This document shows positions 2,999-21,663 of a DNA stretch of 55,940 bases, piece by piece. This stretch comes from an uncultured Candidatus Actinomarina sp. (GTDB taxonomy: Bacteria; Actinomycetota; Acidimicrobiia; Actinomarinales; Actinomarinaceae). The stretch lies in contig CABXDL010000006.1 of the NCBI GenBank assembly GCA_902510995.1, forward strand, positions 1 through 55,940, read 5' to 3'. The notes below the pieces were generated by a model that made no database searches, was not told the DNA's origin, and saw nothing but the letters and a program-made list of their open reading frames with translations. Positions within the stretch are counted from its first letter, which is position 1, and each line of letters opens with the position of its first letter. A program made the translations under genes and the position numbers.

Positions 2999-4300
2999 AT
3001 GAAAGAAAATAATACTGACGAAGTTTTAATTTTGGGTTTACCTAATTCTGGTAAGTCAACATTAGTAAATGTGCTATGTTCAAAAAAAGTATCAATTATT
3101 GGTTCAACGCCTAATACAACTAGGGACAAGGTCTCTTCACTAGCAACTATTAATGACAGAACGTTTAAGGTTTCTGATTTACCTGGATATTTAGAGAATC
3201 CAGATGAATTAAATATAAAATTTCAAAAAAAATTAGAGGGGTACATAGATGATGCAAATATAATTTTATTTGTAATTGATGTTGATTCAAAAAACTTTAA
3301 AGGTCTAGATAAGTTAAATGACATATTGAGAAAAAGTAAAGGTAAGACAATTTTTACAGTATTTAATAAATGCGAAAACTTTGAAGTTCATGATCTAGAT
3401 AAAAACTTATATAAATATATATATGATCAGGATTTTTATATTTCATCTGTTCATAAAATAGGCACAGATGAGCTCAGTAACGCGTTATCTAATAAAATAA
3501 AAAGAACAAGTAATAATCAACCTATACAGAAATCAAATTCAATAGTATTAATTGGAAGACCTAACTCCGGAAAATCTACTTTATTTAATTCAATATTAAA
3601 AACAGATAGATCGGTAGTATCTTCTATTTCAGGAACAACAAGAGATGTTATAAAAGATACTTTCAAATTTGAAAATGATAAATATCAAATAATTGATACA
3701 GCTGGTGTACCAAGAAACAAACAAAAAAATCAGATTGATAGATACGCTTCTTCTCTTGCTGTTGATCAATTGAACCATTCGTTAGTAGCATTGTTGGTTA
3801 TTGATTCAACTATTGGAATAAGTTTTGAAGATTTGAGATTAATTAATGAATGTATTGAAAATGATGTTACTCCAATATTAATTTTAAATAAATGGGACCT
3901 ACTAGATACAGAACAAAAAGAAGGTATTAATAAACATATAAAAGATAACTTAAAAAAATTTGATTGGGTTCATGTATTAAGAATTTCCGCATTAACTACA
4001 AAAGGTATAAATCTAATTAATAATGTTTTGACAGATATAAATAAACAATTAAGAACCAGGGTCACAACTTCAGATTTAAATATTTACTTAAGAGAATTGT
4101 GGGTATCTAAGCCTCCACATCCATTTAGGGGCAAGCGTTCGAAATTAAAATATGCCACTCAATATGACTCATTACCTCCATCTATAGCAATTAATTTAAA
4201 TGGACGAATACCTAAAAATTATCAAAGTTTTTTAATAAACAAATTAAGAATAAATTATGGATTTTATAATATTTGTATAAAAATGAAATATAACTTATAA
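2999..4300 (+). CDS. der: Ribosome biogenesis GTPase Der
   Basis: Two tandem GTPase domains (GLPNSGKS..TTRD..NKCE; GRPNSGKS..TTRD..DTAG..NKWD) plus KH-like C-terminus. Confidence 0.95.
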   Translation: MKENNTDEVLILGLPNSGKSTLVNVLCSKKVSIIGSTPNTTRDKVSSLATINDRTFKVSDLPGYLENPDELNIKFQKKLEGYIDDANIILFVIDVDSKNFKGLDKLNDILRKSKGKTIFTVFNKCENFEVHDLDKNLYKYIYDQDFYISSVHKIGTDELSNALSNKIKRTSNNQPIQKSNSIVLIGRPNSGKSTLFNSILKTDRSVVSSISGTTRDVIKDTFKFENDKYQIIDTAGVPRNKQKNQIDRYASSLAVDQLNHSLVALLVIDSTIGISFEDLRLINECIENDVTPILILNKWDLLDTEQKEGINKHIKDNLKKFDWVHVLRISALTTKGINLINNVLTDINKQLRTRVTTSDLNIYLRELWVSKPPHPFRGKRSKLKYATQYDSLPPSIAINLNGRIPKNYQSFLINKLRINYGFYNICIKMKYNL

Positions 4301-12245: not shown

Positions 12246-13303
12246 TTCTTTTCTTAGCAGTTCTCCTAATAAATAATTCTTCTTATGCAGAAGAGTTAAG
12301 TGAAGACTTTTTATCGACAGATCATTATATTTCTTATGATATACAAAATGACTCTATTTTATTTTCAAAAAACATTAATGAAAAAATTTATCCCGCTTCA
12401 TTAACAAAAATTATGACTGCTCTTATTTTGTTAGATAAATATAACTTAAATGAATATATAACAACTATTTATCCAATAGATTATGAAGAAAATGGTAAAG
12501 TAGCATACATTCCAGAAAATATAGAAATAAGTATAGTTAATCTCTTAGAATTACTCCTTGTTTATTCAGCTAATGATGCTGCTTATATATCAGCTATTGC
12601 TGTTTCAGGAAATATTGATGATTTTGTATTTTTAATGAATAAAAAAGCAAAAGCTTTTGGTATGGATGATACAAACTTTATTAATCCAGACGGATTGGAC
12701 GAAATGAATCATTACACAACTTTAAATGATCTTTTAAAAATGTCATTGAAAGCTATTCAAAAAAAAGAAATTCTCGCATTAGTAAGTAAAGAAAATTTCA
12801 TATCTAATATTTCAGGTAACGATGTGATTTATTATTCGACAAATATATTACTAAAAGAGGGTTTCGTAGGTTTGAAAACAGGATGGACTGATATGGCAGG
12901 CCTTACGTTCATTGGTTTGAATCAAAGTAATGAAAGAGAAATAATAACAATTGTTAACAAGTCAAAAGTAGATGAAAATAAATATTCTCATTTTTCTGAT
13001 ACTAAATTGTTATATAAAACTAGTATTGAAACTTTTAATAATTACAAAATTCTAAATAAAACTGAAAACATTTATATTCTAAGAAGTAGTTATGTTACTG
13101 AACAATATAAAAGTGAAATTGAATGGACTGAATTTATCAACTTAAGTGAAAAAAATAGCATTACATTATCCGACTATAGTAATAAAAATATTACATTATC
13201 ATTTAATCAATATAAAAAATCATTTAAAATCAGCAATAATCAAAAGAAAATAAAATGGGTCTTTGATCCCTTAAAAATATTTAAAATTAATGCAAATCAA
13301 TAA
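12230..13303 (+). CDS. D-alanyl-D-alanine carboxypeptidase (peptidase S11), probable ATT start
   Basis: SLTK lies upstream of ATG 12413 in the same frame; SAN and KTG motifs present; AGGAG RBS then ATT at 12230 followed by a signal peptide. Confidence 0.8.
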   Translation: MRRIIVLFLAVLLINNSSYAEELSEDFLSTDHYISYDIQNDSILFSKNINEKIYPASLTKIMTALILLDKYNLNEYITTIYPIDYEENGKVAYIPENIEISIVNLLELLLVYSANDAAYISAIAVSGNIDDFVFLMNKKAKAFGMDDTNFINPDGLDEMNHYTTLNDLLKMSLKAIQKKEILALVSKENFISNISGNDVIYYSTNILLKEGFVGLKTGWTDMAGLTFIGLNQSNEREIITIVNKSKVDENKYSHFSDTKLLYKTSIETFNNYKILNKTENIYILRSSYVTEQYKSEIEWTEFINLSEKNSITLSDYSNKNITLSFNQYKKSFKISNNQKKIKWVFDPLKIFKINANQ

Positions 13304-13360
13304 TAAAAAAATTTATTTATAAACTATAATTTTTGAAATAATACTTCTAATATTTTTGAT

Positions 13361-13840
13361 ATGAGTAGAAATATAAAGGTAGAAGTTAATTCAATAAGGT
13401 TAGATGAAACTTCAGAAACACCTATTTTGTTATTATTAGATCCATCATCTCAAAAAGTATTACCTATTTGGATTGGCACAATTGAAGCTGTCTCTATTGC
13501 TTACGCACAAGAGGGAATACTTCACGACAGACCTCAAACACATGATTTGTTAATAGATATCGTTGATGCACTAGATGGCAATATTAATGAAGTAAATATA
13601 TCAAATATAGATAATGACACGTATTTTGCAAATTTAATACTTAAAAATGGAAATGGCTTAGTAACATTATCTGCTAGACCAAGTGACGCAATAGCTATTG
13701 CTTTACGTTTAAATATACCAGTTACAGTAAATGAAGATTTATTTGAAACTCATTCTATAGATTTAATTGTTGATTCTTCAAATGAAATAGAAGAATTTAA
13801 AGAGTTTATTCAAGATGTAAAGCCTGAGGATTTTTCTTAA
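13361..13840 (+). CDS. Bifunctional nuclease family protein (DUF151)
   Basis: LPIWIG..EA.SI...RPQTHDL...ARPSDAIAIALR. Confidence 0.92.
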   Translation: MSRNIKVEVNSIRLDETSETPILLLLDPSSQKVLPIWIGTIEAVSIAYAQEGILHDRPQTHDLLIDIVDALDGNINEVNISNIDNDTYFANLILKNGNGLVTLSARPSDAIAIALRLNIPVTVNEDLFETHSIDLIVDSSNEIEEFKEFIQDVKPEDFS

Positions 13841-13878
13841 AACCTTGAAATAAAATATATTCATAGTAGATTGTAATT

Positions 13879-14322
13879 ATGCGACAGGGTTATACAGGAA
13901 CAGAAGTATGTAATATAACAGGTATTACATATAGACAATTGGATCATTGGACATCAACAAAACTTGTAGAAGCATCTATAAGAAATATAAAAGGTTCTGG
14001 ATTTCATAGAATATATTCTTTTCAAGATATTATAAAAGTTAAATTAGTAAATAAATTAAGAGATGCGGGTATTAGTCTTCAAAAAATTAGAATTGCTCTT
14101 TCAAATGTAAATAAAATATTAGGTAAAAATATAAATATTACTGATATATCAATTTTTTCAGACGGACAGTCAATTTATGTAATAACTGATAATAACCAAA
14201 TGTTAGATTTATTACGTAAAGGACAAGCTGTGTTTGGAATATCATTGGGGCCTGTACACACTGAAACGGAAGCTGAAATATTTTCTCTTTATCCTGAAAA
14301 AATTTCATCAAATAATAGATGA
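13879..14322 (+). CDS. MerR-family regulator (Rv1830-like)
   Basis: GITYRQLDHW...GSG..R.YSF.DI...L.DAGISLQKIR...GQAVFGI. Confidence 0.9.
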   Translation: MRQGYTGTEVCNITGITYRQLDHWTSTKLVEASIRNIKGSGFHRIYSFQDIIKVKLVNKLRDAGISLQKIRIALSNVNKILGKNINITDISIFSDGQSIYVITDNNQMLDLLRKGQAVFGISLGPVHTETEAEIFSLYPEKISSNNR

Positions 14323-14651
14323 AATTTGCTCACCCTTCAGAGAAGTTATTTACTGAACATCTTAATTTATTTGATATACCTTGGATTTATGAACCAATAA
14401 GTTTTCCTTTGAAGTGGGGAAGTGGTGCAATAAAAAAAATGTTTACACCAGATTTTTATTTACCAACATTAAACATTTATATTGAAATAACTACTATGAA
14501 TCAAAAACTTATAACAAAGAAAAGTAATAAAATAAAATTAGCTTCGAAACTTTATCCAAATAACAATTTTAAGTTAATTAATGAAAAAGAGTTTTATAAT
14601 TTTCTAACTAAAGATAATAAAAATTTAATTCAAGAAGCTATAGCTAGCTGA
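14319..14651 (+). CDS. Small PD-(D/E)xK-like nuclease-fold protein
   Basis: SE..F...L....I.W.YEP...FTPDFYLP..NIYIEITT pattern. Confidence 0.6.
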   Translation: MKFAHPSEKLFTEHLNLFDIPWIYEPISFPLKWGSGAIKKMFTPDFYLPTLNIYIEITTMNQKLITKKSNKIKLASKLYPNNNFKLINEKEFYNFLTKDNKNLIQEAIAS

Positions 14652-15569
14652 CTTTACCAACAATTCTTCTGGGTTCTCTATTCCTATTTTTTTACATATA
14701 TTTAATTCATTATTTACATCAGTATTACTCATTAGCCTATTGTCTGTATTTATTGAAACATTAAATCCTAGTTTTATTAAATCTAAAATTGGATGCTTTT
14801 CTTCATTTTCATACATATTTGTATGAATATTTGACGTAATACATACTTCTAGTGGAATCTGATTGTTAACTAAATATGTTGCTGTTTTACCAAGTAGTTT
14901 ATTTTCTAGATCTACATCTTCTATAATTCTTACACCATGACCAATTCTTTTAGCACCATTTTCTAAAGCATCTGAAATTGATTCCACATTGTCACCTTCA
15001 CCAGCATGAATTGTTATATTGATACCCTCATCTTCAACTTTTTTGAAAGTTTCTTTATAAAGCGAAGGTCTAAAATTTAATTCAACTCCGGCAATGTCAA
15101 ATCCTATTATCATATCTTTATAATCTATAGCTATTTGACCAACTTTTTCTACATTTTTCTTATCATTTCTCATTCCACATAAAATTAACCCCGAATGTAT
15201 CCCATACATTTGTTCTGCTTGTTTGAAACCAGAATTAATTGATTCAAGAACATTTTTTATAGATAAATTAGAATTAACTGAATATAGGGGAGCATATCTA
15301 CTTTCATAGATGTTAATACCATTATTATGCATATCTTCTGCTGCTTCGAAAGCAATTCTTTCTAAATTTTCATAAGTGTTCATTAGAGCAGTTGTGTGTA
15401 CAAAAGCTTCTAAGTAATCTTCTAATGAATCACAATTAGACCTATCAAAAAAAATATTTATATCGTCAACCTCTAATAATGGCTTGTAGGAAGCTTTTTT
15501 TGCAAATTCTAATGCTGTAGTAGCTCTTAATCCGCCATCTAGGTGATCATGTAAAATTGCCTTATACAT
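14625..15569 (-). CDS. add: Adenosine deaminase
   Basis: LHDHLDG; TIHAGE; RIGHG; EVC.TSN; NTDN. Confidence 0.92.
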   Translation of the reverse strand: MYKAILHDHLDGGLRATTALEFAKKASYKPLLEVDDINIFFDRSNCDSLEDYLEAFVHTTALMNTYENLERIAFEAAEDMHNNGINIYESRYAPLYSVNSNLSIKNVLESINSGFKQAEQMYGIHSGLILCGMRNDKKNVEKVGQIAIDYKDMIIGFDIAGVELNFRPSLYKETFKKVEDEGINITIHAGEGDNVESISDALENGAKRIGHGVRIIEDVDLENKLLGKTATYLVNNQIPLEVCITSNIHTNMYENEEKHPILDLIKLGFNVSINTDNRLMSNTDVNNELNICKKIGIENPEELLVKSASYSFLN

Positions 15570-15570
15570 A

Positions 15571-15598
15571 ACGCAACATAATATTAATTATACGACAA
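15571..15598 (-). other. Weak dif-like 11-6-11 site (TTGTCGTATAA-TTAATT-ATATGTTGCGT); also contains a TATAAT that may be the add promoter
   Basis: 6/11 and 7/11 matches to the E. coli dif XerC and XerD arms; intergenic; near the coding-strand switch. Confidence 0.25.
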
Positions 15599-15616
15599 AG
15601 TGAGATATTCATAATT

Positions 15617-16483
15617 TTACCTAATCTCATTAAGAACACTCTCCTTATGGGTCAATGGTAACCAATGTCCTGCACCTTTTACTTCTTTAATAGTAATGTC
15701 TGAGCCTAAATTATTTAATCGGTTACTCATTTTATCTGTCAACTTAACTGCAACATCTAATTCACCATAGAGAAATGTAACTGGTGTTTTTACTTTCTTC
15801 CTCCATTCACTACTTAACTCAATGTTCAAATCTATATTTGAATACCAACAAATGGGCTGGTATAAAGAGTGTCCTTTAAAATGGTCTATGTAATTGTAAA
15901 TCGTAGTATCGTCAACAACTAACTTCCTTGCTTTTCCGTGAGTAAATAATTTTTGTAGTGATAAATCAGGTTGTCCTATTTTTGTAAAAACATCTCTATA
16001 AGCTAATCTAAAGAAAGAATCTAGATTTAAATCAATTTCCTCTGCAGATTTTTTTGGATTTTGAAATGAAGTAATATAGTGATCTTCAAGATTAAATTTC
16101 AAATTATTATAAATATTTGAACCAGGAAACTCATCACCACCACATATAGATACAAAATTTTTAACACTTATATTTTTTCTTGATACTACTGCCCAGCCAA
16201 CAATTGATCCCCAGTCGTGTCCTACAATTGTTAATTCATTATCTAAATTTAATTCTTTAACTAACTCTTCTATATCTAGTGCTAAACACTCAATATTAAA
16301 ATCAATAGCAAGTGAATTATTTAATTCTGATAAAGGATATCCTCTCTGTTCAGGTACAGTTACTCTTTTATTGTTTATAATAAGATCTTTTTTAATTTCA
16401 TCCCAAAAATACATATTCGATGGGAACCCATGCAACAAAAGAACATCACTCCCCTCGCCTTCAATGGTGTGTGCTAATTTCAT
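15617..16483 (-). CDS. Alpha/beta hydrolase, epoxide hydrolase-like
   Basis: LHGFP; RGY; GHDWG nucleophile Asp; AGHW. Confidence 0.85.
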   Translation of the reverse strand: MKLAHTIEGEGSDVLLLHGFPSNMYFWDEIKKDLIINNKRVTVPEQRGYPLSELNNSLAIDFNIECLALDIEELVKELNLDNELTIVGHDWGSIVGWAVVSRKNISVKNFVSICGGDEFPGSNIYNNLKFNLEDHYITSFQNPKKSAEEIDLNLDSFFRLAYRDVFTKIGQPDLSLQKLFTHGKARKLVVDDTTIYNYIDHFKGHSLYQPICWYSNIDLNIELSSEWRKKVKTPVTFLYGELDVAVKLTDKMSNRLNNLGSDITIKEVKGAGHWLPLTHKESVLNEIR

Positions 16484-20315: not shown

Positions 20316-20339
20316 TATTTCATTATATATAAAAAATAG

Positions 20340-20362
20340 AAAAACCCCTGATTTCTCAGGGG
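20340..20362 (-). terminator. Intrinsic terminator after the displaced 5S fragment
   Basis: CCCCTGA-tttc-TCAGGGG hairpin with A-tract on + (U-tract on -). Confidence 0.85.
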
Positions 20363-20370
20363 CTCTTCAA

Positions 20371-20441
20371 TAAAAGTCGGCGGTGTTCTACTCTCCCAGA
20401 GGGTTGCCCCTCAAGTACCATCGACGCTAGTGGACTTTACT
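20371..20441 (-). repeat. Duplicated 3' portion of 5S rRNA (att-like direct repeat)
   Basis: 71 bp identical to 21542-21612; identity stops abruptly after GGACTTTACT. Confidence 0.97.
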
Positions 20442-20567
20442 AACGAAATTGGTAGGTATACAGTACCCTCATGTGCATACAGCGAATATAGGTAATAGTT
20501 GTACGAGTTTTTTCTTTAGTTTTTAGTAATTACGTAATCTGTTCATACTCAATATAAGGAAATAACA

Positions 20568-20623
20568 AAAAAAATAGTCGCATAATAGTCGCACTATTTT
20601 TACTACAATTATTTTATGAAACT
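20568..20623 (+). repeat. Cassette repeat copy 1 (A7-TAGTCGCATAATAGTCGCACT-ATTTTTACTACAATTATTTT-ATGAAACT)
   Basis: Tandem 11-bp units; first 28 bp identical to 21417-21444; downstream part near-identical to copy 2. Confidence 0.95.
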
Positions 20624-20999
20624 TTTTCGTTTTATGTTATTGGCAATTATGTTAATGTCTTGTTCATCTTTTCAAGCAAATAATACAGAAGAAGTAATTT
20701 CAGAGGAAGTATGGCACTGGTGTGTTGGCAACCATAGATATATTTCCTACAACTATGACTACTTGTGGAAAGATGAAGATTTGAGAAATGAAGAAATTGA
20801 TTATACCGAGATACATAAACTTTTTAGCACTTTACTCGCTGCTTTTGATCTTTCTAAAACCCAGCAACTAATAGAAAATAATAACCTAAATTATTCAAAT
20901 CTTCTAGAATCTGAATTTTATACAGCACTTCAAGTCAAAGAAGAAGCACATTTAGAAATTTGTACAATATGGTTTAATATGAATAATCCAAATAAATAA
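20616..20999 (+). CDS. Orphan lipoprotein 1
   Basis: MKLFRFMLLAIMLMS-C lipobox; WC and CTIW Cys motifs. Confidence 0.8.
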   Translation: MKLFRFMLLAIMLMSCSSFQANNTEEVISEEVWHWCVGNHRYISYNYDYLWKDEDLRNEEIDYTEIHKLFSTLLAAFDLSKTQQLIENNNLNYSNLLESEFYTALQVKEEAHLEICTIWFNMNNPNK

Positions 21000-21046
21000 T
21001 CGCATAATACTCACACTATTTTTACTACAATTATTTTTATGAAACT
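20995..21046 (+). repeat. Cassette repeat copy 2 (degenerate)
   Basis: AATAATCGCATAATACTCACAC-TATTTTTACTACAATTATTTTT-ATGAAACT; 3 substitutions and 1 extra T versus copy 1; contains the stop codon of lipoprotein 1. Confidence 0.92.
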
Positions 21047-21410
21047 AAAATATGTTATCTTATTTGCAATTATATTAACTTCTTGTACAACCACTGATCT
21101 AGCAACAGATAATCAAATAGATTGGTGTATTTCTAGATCACGTAGTATTAATTTTGTAGCTAATTCTGTATCAGGAAAAAGTTCAGATACGAAGTCTGAA
21201 ACAATAAATTTAATTATATATTGGGAAACAGCCTTGAACCGAGTCGCAAAAAATATGGAAATTGATCCCGATGATGTATTAAATATTGATTATAATACAA
21301 TTGACCCAAATTCCTTATTTCAAGACTTTCAAAATTTGCTAGAAGAAGATGGTGAAGATTTTATGCGTGCTTCTAGAGTTTGTAAAATTTGGGAAGAACT
21401 TTCAAATTAA
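21039..21410 (+). CDS. Orphan lipoprotein 2 (distant paralog of lipoprotein 1)
   Basis: MKLKYVILFAIILTS-C lipobox; WC and CKIW Cys motifs. Confidence 0.8.
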   Translation: MKLKYVILFAIILTSCTTTDLATDNQIDWCISRSRSINFVANSVSGKSSDTKSETINLIIYWETALNRVAKNMEIDPDDVLNIDYNTIDPNSLFQDFQNLLEEDGEDFMRASRVCKIWEELSN

Positions 21411-21416
21411 TTTTCT

Positions 21417-21444
21417 AAAAAAATAGTCGCATAATAGTCGCACT
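21417..21444 (+). repeat. Cassette repeat copy 3
   Basis: AAAAAAATAGTCGCATAATAGTCGCACT identical to 20568-20595. Confidence 0.95.
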
Positions 21445-21513
21445 TTCTATTTTTCAATAATATCGTTGAAAATTATTAGATAATATTTTATTAAAAATTA
21501 CACTATAAAAATG

Positions 21514-21535
21514 AAAAACCCCTGATAAACAGGGG
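21514..21535 (-). terminator. rrn operon intrinsic terminator after the intact 5S
   Basis: CCCCTG-ataaa-CAGGGG with A-tract on +. Confidence 0.85.
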
Positions 21536-21545
21536 CTTTTCTAAA

Positions 21546-21663
21546 AGTCGGCGGTGTTCTACTCTCCCAGAGGGTTGCCCCTCAAGTACCATCGACGCTA
21601 GTGGACTTTACTTCCGTGTTCGGAATGGGAACGGGTGTATCCCCACTGCTATCACCACCGCAA
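21546..21663 (-). rRNA. rrf: 5S rRNA
   Basis: Reverse complement has CCCATTCCGAACACGGAAGT, CGATGGTACT and GGGAGAGTAG; ends approximate. Confidence 0.97.

Follow-up and report, generated by a model that had tools for sequence, protein, structure and literature searches.

The closest described counterparts of the locus treated here are the arm-type sites of heterobivalent tyrosine integrases, as known from the P and P' sites of phage lambda, the site pairs of mycobacteriophage L5, the repeats of pSAM2 and the DR-2 11-mers of Tn916. Two further classes of known systems invite comparison. Cis-mobilizable elements (CIMEs) and other trans-mobilised integrative elements possess attachment (att) sites and no recombinase gene, usually measure tens of kb and have a conjugative origin, and attC and dif-type sites, on which IntI or XerC/D act, are built as imperfect inverted repeats with a central region between them. 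We have analyzed a stretch of 55,940 nt (the window; all coordinates are window positions unless stated otherwise) from an uncultured Candidatus Actinomarina sp. (assembly GCA_902510995.1, contig CABXDL010000006.1), belonging to a genome of 982 kb that is 75% complete, in which three copies of a tandem 11-mer accompany two lipoprotein genes inside a 1.1-kb island at the 3' end of the 5S ribosomal RNA (rRNA) gene. In our judgement this motif rather probably represents the paired, arm-located recombinase-binding repeats of an integrase-less integrative cassette.

Related phenomena have been reported from streamlined marine bacteria. Lopez-Perez et al. (2020; PMC7771536) describe cassettes in a flexible island of 'Candidatus Actinomarinales' that are flanked by fragments of transfer RNA (tRNA) genes and shared between genomes, and by the main text of that paper the tRNA-Val array presented below is the same phenomenon; partial-tRNA repeats at cassettes of Actinomarinales are thus already published. 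In that main text there is no mention of 'tandem', 'attP', 'integrase' or 'recombinase', '5S rRNA' appears a single time, in the description of the operon, and unlike the loci described here the cassettes appear there without paired 11-mers, a conserved arm or a 5S site. A preprint on Actinomarina (10.64898/2026.04.03.716425) places the rRNA operon separate from the hypervariable region and contains the word 'integrase' nowhere in its text; an insertion region at the 3' end of the 5S gene is mentioned in the text of neither publication. In Prochlorococcus, tycheposons are integrase-mediated elements at tRNA genes, some of them resembling phage-inducible chromosomal islands (PICI), and repeated integration at the same site leaves more partial tRNAs scattered in islands (Hackl et al., 10.1101/2020.12.28.424599). 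Going by that text, in which 'rRNA' and 'arm-type' are not found, the likeness is that integrase-mediated elements occupy tRNA genes in a marine bacterium with a streamlined genome, and one element of a relative of our organism (G049, see below) resembles tycheposons or PICI; unlike tycheposons, the cassettes described here measure 0.3-3 kb and are integrase-less, yet they have complete arms with paired repeats. Titles and abstracts obtained from full-text literature searches, which do not extend to supplements, contain no description of integration into a bacterial 5S gene. On this basis, the novelty lies in integrative cassettes that retain nothing but cargo and complete arms and have paired 11-mers specific to each cassette, and in the 5S gene as an additional target.

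The 16S-23S-5S operon of the window is encoded on the minus strand (Rfam). Its intact 5S rRNA gene (21546-21662, minus strand; Rfam RF00001, 99.4 bits), the presumed target (attB), shares its last 67 nt with a partial copy (20371-20441, minus strand), the attL-side core, which consists of these 67 nt of the gene and 4 nt more. Together they form a direct repeat of 71 nt (20371-20441 and 21542-21612) with 100% identity, and the partial copy is recognized by the Rfam 5S model with 21.3 bits over 20375-20480, under the gathering score of 38. A similar terminator hairpin follows each of the two 5S 3' ends, both being found with a terminator scan. The left-hand hairpin T_L (20339-20368, minus strand) is like the terminator of G022, the closest species-level relative (upstream genes 96% identical), save for one base just past the hairpin, whereas the sequence of the right-hand hairpin T_R (21513-21541, minus strand) is unlike it. 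In G022 the island is lacking and the 5S gene leads directly into a terminator of the T_L type. Because of this we regard the 1.1-kb segment 20442-21541 between both repeat copies, T_R included, as an insertion at the 5S 3' end; T_R would have come with the island, since its sequence differs from the terminator of the island-free relative, and T_L appears to be the original 5S terminator of the host, now shifted to the far side of the island. That the island was lost from G022 by recombination between the repeats is less likely.

The whole motif array lies inside this island. A non-coding arm of 131 nt (20442-20572) extends from the 5S fragment to motif copy 1, and a spacer (21444-21512) without any open reading frame (ORF) of 30 or more amino acids extends from copy 3 to the 5S terminator. 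The initial annotation had placed copies 1 and 3 about 100-130 bp inside the ends of an island; these ends turn out to be real and are formed by the 71-nt 5S direct repeat, with copy 1 at 131 nt and copy 3 at about 100 nt from them. One Logan contig (run X1, depth 6.8) joins position 21427, where motif copy 3 starts, to 21508 at the beginning of the 5S terminator, skipping 80 nt, and may represent a variant with a shorter spacer. A chimeric RNA composed of the arm and the 5S fragment was considered and rejected as weak, given a fold z-score of -2.44 and the low score with the 5S model. The own genome contains a 140-nt spacer without tRNA genes and a 50-nt gap between 23S and 5S genes, and has a GC content of about 29% and a size of about 1 Mb, features which agree with those given for Actinomarina in the text of the preprint 10.64898/2026.04.03.716425.

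A pattern search for the tandem 11-mer AATAGTCGCAT-AATAGTCGCAC gave three matches, all on the plus strand, where none was expected from 100 shuffles, in agreement with the three direct copies of a 22-mer that had been noticed on first inspection. Copy 1 (REP1, 20573-20594) reads AATAGTCGCAT AATAGTCGCAC without mismatch and is preceded by eight A residues, copy 2 (REP2, 20995-21016; AATAATCGCAT AATACTCACAC) has 3 mismatches and lies internally, between both cargo genes, and copy 3 (REP3, 21422-21443) again is free of mismatches and is not followed by a gene. The 28 bp said to be common to copies 1 and 3 exist and consist of seven A followed by TAGTCGCATAATAGTCGCACT, and the near-identical continuation of copies 1 and 2 could be reproduced as TATTTTTAC-TACAAT-TATTTT(T)-ATGAAAC, a run of about 35 nt that takes in the TACAAT and the start codon. 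Also, the stop codon of gene 1 (20997-20999) indeed lies within copy 2, and gene 2 ends at 21410, 5 nt ahead of the shared A-run and 11 nt ahead of the 22-mer of copy 3. The repeat units measure 422 and 427 nt. As to the fold proposed for copy 1, the hairpin AAAAATAGT/ACTATTTTT is real, but it is missing at copy 3 and at the four copies present on the two metagenome contigs L067 and L073 described below, and therefore it is no conserved feature.

A degenerate extra unit, AATAGTTGTAC, is situated at 20494-20504 inside the 131-nt arm, and the sequence after copy 3 shows, by reading, a faint likeness to the promoter/start region of the units. In the own genome, the tandem form is restricted to these three copies (genome-wide search), and among 64 relatives no tandem copy with matching flanks was found, three hits with 3 mismatches lacking the flanks of the window. 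When tandem 10-12-mers of any sequence were collected, 33 were encountered genome-wide, and those recurring within 6 kb were confined to three loci, namely the 5S island, a tRNA-Val array on contig C16 and a run of GTTGTAGTTGTA-type repeats.

The recurring layout at such loci is RNA gene, spacer, tandem 11-mers, cargo, tandem 11-mers, arm and partial RNA gene. On contig C16 of the own genome (C16:18000-27594; L113), the tRNA-Val gene and two partial 3' copies of it separate three cassettes, each of which is framed by its own 11-mer (AAAAACCCCAC, AAAACACCCAC or AAAAGACACCT) and has a conserved arm of about 107 nt behind it. This module of arm plus partial tRNA was detected in 57 of the 64 relatives at E<=1e-6. 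We scored 21 loci, comprising the C16 array and 20 more (19 in relatives, the other on a second contig of the own genome), with a total of 24 cassettes, each delimited by a tRNA piece and the arm that follows it. Within a cassette, left and right repeats differed by a median distance of 1.1 of 22 and by no more than 2 in 17 of the 24 cases, as compared with a median of 6.5 of 22, and no more than 2 in 54 of 552 comparisons, for left and right repeats of different cassettes; because the genomes are kin, these counts describe a pattern and do not constitute a test. On inspection, the within-cassette distance was at most 2.3 in 21 of the 24 cassettes, the discordant ones being those of G048, of G007 and the second cassette of G026. 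The equivalent repeats of the relatives adjoin 3' ends of genes as often as 5' ends.

Across genomes, spacer and arm mostly move along with the cargo. The spacers at tRNA-Val co-vary with the repeat type and the arms do so partly, the nearest arm having the same repeat type in about 10 of 23 cases by our own count, and one arm of the own genome is 100% identical to an arm of G052. Because of this covariation, spacer, repeat, cargo, repeat and arm are regarded as travelling as a unit, from core to core. Some loci depart from this simple order. In G057 (L118, G057:C2 3231-5010) a fused double cassette has three repeats and no tRNA fragment between the cargos, and its middle repeat is a hybrid with a first unit of the left type and a second unit of the right type. 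G050 likewise has three repeats, all of one type, and in G008 (L131, G008:C9 ~3471-3598) an 'empty' unit is composed of a partial tRNA, the spacer, one hybrid repeat and the start of an arm (64 nt). These fusions and the empty unit indicate that repeat-by-repeat recombination fuses or empties cassettes.

At the 5S gene itself, seven of the 64 relatives (G010, G015, G023, G028, G031, G033 and G051) have extra copies of the combination of terminator plus partial 5S (loci L037-L044). One to three such copies are present per relative, at 0.3-3 kb from the 5S gene and in G033 on a second contig; their 5S fragments comprise either about 27 or about 67-77 nt of the gene, and differing small genes lie between them. 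When these islands were scanned for tandem 9-13-mers with at most one mismatch, the layout with tandem 11-mers was seen, at least partly, in three of the seven relatives. In G023, a distance of about 125 nt separates the 5S fragment from TAAACCTGGCC-AAAACCTGGCC, and AAAACCGGGTC-AAAACCGGGCC precedes the terminator of the intact 5S gene by about 45 nt, in G031 the pair GAAACTGAGCC-AAAACTGAGCC is present at both ends, and in G033 the left pair is clear and the right pair degenerate. The repeats of G023 and G031 adjoin the 3' end of the cargo on one side. The cargo at the 5S genes of relatives comprises an AIPR abortive-infection protein, two T5orf172/MUG113 proteins, an SF1 helicase, a weak HIRAN match and a lipoprotein, and because of the AIPR, T5orf172 nuclease and SF1 helicase genes this insertion region may be a small defence island. 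Further repeat sets were observed in the type-I 5S arm (L037 5018-5125; L039 500-596), where ACGGAAATA is present three to four times in tandem beside the 5S fragment together with several copies of (A/T)TAATTCCG that partly resemble their own reverse complement; from their sequences, these sets suggest an assembly site for several proteins.

Integrase genes accompany the layout in two elements of relatives. Most relatives encode only two tyrosine recombinases of Xer size, of which one lies at a distance of about 21 kb from the 5S gene (outside the window); longer integrases occur in a few relatives. In the two integrase-bearing elements examined, tandem 11-mers are present inside each end. 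The element of G049 (L114, G049:C3:162000-178000) extends over 5.9 kb from the tRNA-Val gene to a partial copy, encodes an integrase of 366 aa (PF00589 and PF14659), a DUF3631 protein, an XRE regulator and a weak match to a small terminase, and has TTTCCCCCACT twice about 65 nt past the tRNA. Its right repeat, CCCCCACTTTTCCCCCACT, precedes the partial tRNA by about 115 nt, and further single words resembling CCCCCAC lie near it. The element of G007 (L134, G007:C1:221000-237000) occupies 4.9 kb between two tRNA-Ile copies and encodes an integrase of 336 aa; from a reading of its ORFs, and not from a family search, it would further code for a DNA-methyltransferase-like protein and possibly for a restriction enzyme. 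Its GGTGACTTTTT pairs lie about 45-50 nt inside both ends, and read on the other strand (AATAGTCACCA) the unit agrees with that of the window in 8 of 11 bases. The integrases of G049 and G007 are candidate helpers for the integrase-less cassettes.

In order to find the motif outside this group, 241 million metagenome records were scanned with an exact 19-mer of it. Of the 24 stretches retrieved, 22 contain a single copy in unrelated flanks and two (L067 and L073) contain two motif copies 245 nt apart, between which a short spacer is followed by a decayed, reversely oriented 5S copy and by an arm-like segment. The arm of the window is 81% identical to L073 over 193 nt, in an alignment that extends to about 10 nt beyond the motif, and 80% identical to L067 over 165 nt, in an alignment that stops at the motif. 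Also, the flanks of copy 3 (TTTYCTAAAAAA before and CACTTTnnnATTTTT after it) are common to the first motif copy of both contigs, and the decayed 5S copy is closer to the 5S type of the window than to the complete 5S of the same contig (hand alignment over 21-30 nt). Outside both motif copies, L067 and L073 are unrelated to the window. On one side of the module there are small genes that differ between the two contigs, and on the other side there is a complete 5S gene of a different type (77.5 bits; L073 534-650 and L067 1-57, both on the minus strand), with the second motif copy about 20 nt upstream of it and a TATACT 5 nt past the motif. When the island of the window is circularised via its 5S repeat, the order becomes motif, spacer, 5S core, arm and motif, which is the order found in L067 and L073; therefore, the module of these contigs should represent either an unsplit attP or a junction between cassettes of an array.

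The complete 5S gene of the two contigs shows no more than 76% identity to that of any of the 400 genomes sampled from the phylum, their proteins gave nothing above threshold in PHROGs or Pfam, and among viral contigs and in a phage collection they had neither relatives nor matches; a look-up in the ESM Atlas gave weak portal-like leads with a recognition under the usual level. By analogy, their split-5S layout recalls the 5S edge of hypervariable region 2 (HVR2) of SAR11. In Logan contigs of four marine runs, the arm was found at low depth together with 5S flanks, and the lipoprotein genes were hardly covered, where lack of coverage does not equal absence; this coverage fits an arm that is common to more cassettes than that of the window. 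No sequencing run contained half of the words of the island. Among genome contigs, the motif matched three times (a Bacteroidetes metagenome-assembled genome (MAG), an Ignavibacteria MAG and Mycobacterium intermedium), and viral contigs gave no match for the motif or for the type-I repeat. In the contig of the Ignavibacteria MAG (L083 3682-3886) the exact 19-mer is present three times with a spacing of 93 nt. Thirty viral stretches matching a 17-mer of the arm were discarded as chance hits, as only the seed matched.

Of the explanations offered for the motif in the initial annotation, integrase arm-type sites are best supported, because the same geometry recurs, at least in part, in 5S islands, in tRNA-Val cassettes and in the two integrase-bearing elements, although a cognate integrase for the 5S site was not found. 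Like known arm-type sites, the motif is made up of direct repeats, each about as long as one turn of the helix and often placed side by side in pairs. They are found on both arms, tens of nt to about 150 nt away from a core formed by the 3' end of an RNA gene, and one set lies inside each integrated end. Unlike those, the island has no integrase gene, two small cargo genes and a 5S target, its repeats belong to a group that varies by cassette, and binding by an integrase is here only predicted. With CIMEs, the island has in common att sites and cargo without a recombinase gene and a mobility that would rely on a helper integrase; those elements, however, are usually tens of kb long and derived from conjugative elements, whereas the island measures 1.1 kb and its helper was not found here. 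The likeness to integron attC sites or to pdif sites of Acinetobacter is that short sites frame single-gene cassettes and that fusion and loss occur at these sites, but the motif is a direct repeat without a conserved hairpin and the boundaries that travel with the cassettes are fragments of RNA genes.

In the mechanism that we propose, the island would have entered by a Campbell-type crossover within the last 67 nt of the 5S gene, which would leave the displaced 5S fragment with the host terminator on one side and the intact 5S gene with an imported terminator on the other. The circular form would have tandem 11-mers on both attP arms around a 5S-like core, copies 1 and 3 would be the functional pair, copy 1 on the long arm and copy 3 on the short arm, and an integrase given in trans would bind these repeats while strands are exchanged site-specifically, and not by homologous recombination, in the 5S core. 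Copy 2 is probably what remains of lipoprotein cassettes that were fused or duplicated. In the first case, recombination between the repeats of two related lipoprotein cassettes would have joined them, with deletion of the junction made up of arm, 5S fragment and spacer; in the second, one cassette would have been duplicated as its repeats underwent unequal exchange. Deleting a junction such as that of L067 and L073 is expected to leave one internal repeat of the kind seen in copy 2, and the three-repeat loci of G057 and G050 and the empty unit of G008 provide precedents among relatives. The suggestion that the array consists of modular units of repeat and gene holds in part: homology with L067 and L073 breaks at the motif and recombination at repeats fuses and empties cassettes, but the units that move are bounded by fragments of RNA genes and not by the motif itself.

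Several observations weigh against arm-type sites. No match to PF00589 or PF00239 was found in the own genome at its 75% completeness or in the island, none of the 64 relatives has an integrase next to the 5S gene, and the extra integrases that were checked adjoin tRNA genes. The N-terminus of the G007 integrase matches Arm-DNA-bind_4 weakly (E 0.03, 14.4 bits, under the family cut-off) and the G049 integrase gave no Arm-DNA-bind match. At a tolerance of one mismatch, tandem 11-mers are absent from the 5S islands of G010, G015, G028 and G051 and from the first cassette of G023. L067 and L073 are contigs of only 1.2-1.5 kb next to a different complete 5S gene and, because of that, perhaps display a junction of an array and not a free attP. 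Homologous exchange of a fragment of a donor chromosome would import the island and its terminator equally well. Finally, cassettes with mostly 86-97% identity between their arms have differing repeats, whereas within a cassette the left and right repeats agree. Such cassette-specific repeats are not what fixed arm sites of a single integrase would lead one to expect; they would need co-evolution with many integrases, gene conversion or another mechanism.

A bolder proposal, which we hold to be unlikely though worth stating, is that the tandem 11-mers are a cassette-specific address code in a two-tier system, where the RNA-gene core and the arm would serve for docking and matched repeats would direct excision, fusion and loss of cassettes. 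A related view, to which we give somewhat less credence, is that the repeats are themselves the crossover sites, which generalizes the cassette recombination sites suggested in the initial annotation. Cassettes would then be excised and inserted between their own left and right repeats, the repeat sequence would be the address by which recombination is restricted to matching sites, and RNA-gene fragments and arms would be earlier docking platforms. The match of repeats within cassettes on otherwise similar arms speaks for such crossover sites, as do the hybrid middle repeat of G057 with no tRNA fragment between its cargos, the three repeats of one type in G050 and the 'empty' unit of G008 with its one hybrid repeat. 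The three-copy array of the window agrees with it as well, and the homology of the window with L073 and L067 stops at the inner edge of the motif. However, ordinary recombination of direct repeats of 22-28 nt can also yield hybrids and empty units, and the nearest relative shows a bare 5S gene with its terminator where a platform with a single repeat would be expected. Furthermore, spacer and arm mostly travel with repeat type and cargo, the integrase-bearing elements hold both repeats within their RNA-gene boundaries, and the repeats are direct and lack the inverted binding arms of Xer, Cre or IntI sites.

The repeats might also be architectural or accessory sites, either a phased A-tract bend that replaces IHF or sites for an excisionase-like or a replication protein of the helper, an explanation that we find improbable. 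Most units open with an A-run (or a T-run on one strand) and keep a period of 11 nt, as in AAAAACCCCAC, AAAACCTGGCC, AAAAGACACCT and AATAGTCGCAT; the specific 6-7 nt vary widely while period and A-run stay, and the type-I 5S arm contains the further repeat sets with ACGGAAATA and TAATTCCG. Pure bending, however, leaves unexplained why the same specific bases are found in both copies of a cassette. Excisionase sites usually lie on one arm only, and cassettes devoid of a replication gene would hardly be expected to have replication iterons at each end.

The initial annotation had further suggested a PhoB/OmpR-like activator box, that is, a transcription-factor box or promoter element at -35 which would drive the lipoprotein genes and the 5S genes of the metagenome contigs. 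Copies 1 and 2 do end 9 nt upstream of a TACAAT, the second copy in L073 and L067 precedes the complete 5S gene with its TATACT, and the period of 11 nt corresponds to one helical turn. But this form is seen at copies 1 and 2 and not at copy 3, neither copy 3 nor the first copy of L073 and L067 has a gene downstream, and the distance to the -10 element is 9 nt in the window and 5 nt in the metagenome contigs. On one side the equivalents in G023 and G031 adjoin the 3' end of their cargo, a scan with the sigma-70 consensus gave no promoter-like site at the motif on the plus strand, and searches with the single 11-mer and with the tandem form in the own genome and the 64 relatives did not reveal a regulon or a further tandem copy, so that we abandon the activator box as very improbable.

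The other suggestion, a XerC/D or attC-like site, was likewise not upheld, as the repeats are direct and without inverted arms, the hairpin is not conserved and no tyrosine recombinase was found in the 75%-complete genome. Sites of the dif type used by XerC/D measure about 28 nt and have two inverted 11-nt arms, among them a conserved XerD arm, on either side of a 6-8-nt centre, and attC sites fold into hairpins that are conserved among copies, with an IntI integrase and attI close by. As a dif-type site for XerC/D the motif was rejected since its right side (CACTATTTTTA) is no mirror of the left, and a scan with generic dif patterns, not with the dif of the host itself, found no dif-like pattern at the motif; as an integron attC site it was rejected because the hairpin of copy 1 does not recur at the other copies named above and a recombinase was lacking. 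A dif candidate on contig C3 was dropped as it occurs in only three of the 64 relatives. Elsewhere in the window, the cumulative GC skew peaks at about 14 kb and gene orientation switches at about 14.6 kb in a terminus-like manner (window about 13000-16000), and an intergenic dif-like word, AACGCAACATAATATTAATTATACGACAAA, lies at 15578 (region 15570-15616), near the switch of the GC skew.

Least credible of all is an old, functionless tandem duplication or triplication of a unit of repeat, promoter and lipoprotein gene, for although the unit lengths (422 and 427 nt), the paralogy of both proteins and the faint likeness of the sequence after copy 3 to a promoter/start region would suit it, copies 1 and 3 agree in all of 28 nt while protein identity is no more than 24%, other content is surrounded by the same motif pair and flanks in two metagenome contigs, and paired tandem 11-mers recur at single-gene cassettes without duplication.

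The cargo of the island consists of two genes on the plus strand, gene 1 (20616-20999) for a lipoprotein of 127 aa with a conserved Cys pair and gene 2 (21039-21410) for a lipoprotein of 123 aa that is a distant paralogue of the former; both ORFs have lipoprotein-type signal peptides. The strong divergence noticed earlier between the two proteins was confirmed, as they are 24% identical over their full length (E 2e-6). TACAAT hexamers are located at 20604-20609 for gene 1 and at 21026-21031 for gene 2, 6-7 nt ahead of the ATG, and because they are so close to the ATG that no room for a ribosome-binding site is left, both lipoprotein mRNAs are, from sequence, probably leaderless. A TATAAT was also observed 6 nt ahead of the ATG of the cargo in the G031 island. 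The lipoproteins match no Pfam family. A search of 5.8 billion proteins gave only one homologue, and a profile search, with the three queries counted, gave 18 proteins at E<=0.001 (P0001-P0018). The family is thus rare, with members of 93-143 aa plus one outlier of 481 aa, and it has an invariant Cys after the lipobox Cys and another Cys near the C-terminus. The AlphaFold model of the gene 1 product is all-helical, with a predicted local distance difference test (pLDDT) score of 83, and no fold match to it was obtained in the PDB at E<=0.001.

Actinomarina and SAR11 show large variation in gene content from strain to strain and possess almost no mobile-element genes. Two publications treat the mechanism behind this variation as open, and for SAR11 the mechanisms were called 'poorly understood' in the text of a 2007 paper (PMC2217521). 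The present analysis offers a testable unit, composed of an RNA-gene core, a short spacer, a conserved arm and cassette-specific paired 11-mers, along with two candidate helper integrases (G049 and G007), and it points to a further insertion hot spot at the 3' end of the single 5S gene. Were the address code true, gene turnover would proceed in genomes without a resident integrase, and the layout of L067 and L073, with its likeness to HVR2 of SAR11, may hint at operation or spread of the system across phyla. The puzzle that repeats agree within a cassette and differ across near-identical arms deserves attention, as its answer would separate classical integrase biology from a new kind of cassette addressing. 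At any rate, the paired repeats hint at how streamlined marine bacteria swap genes.

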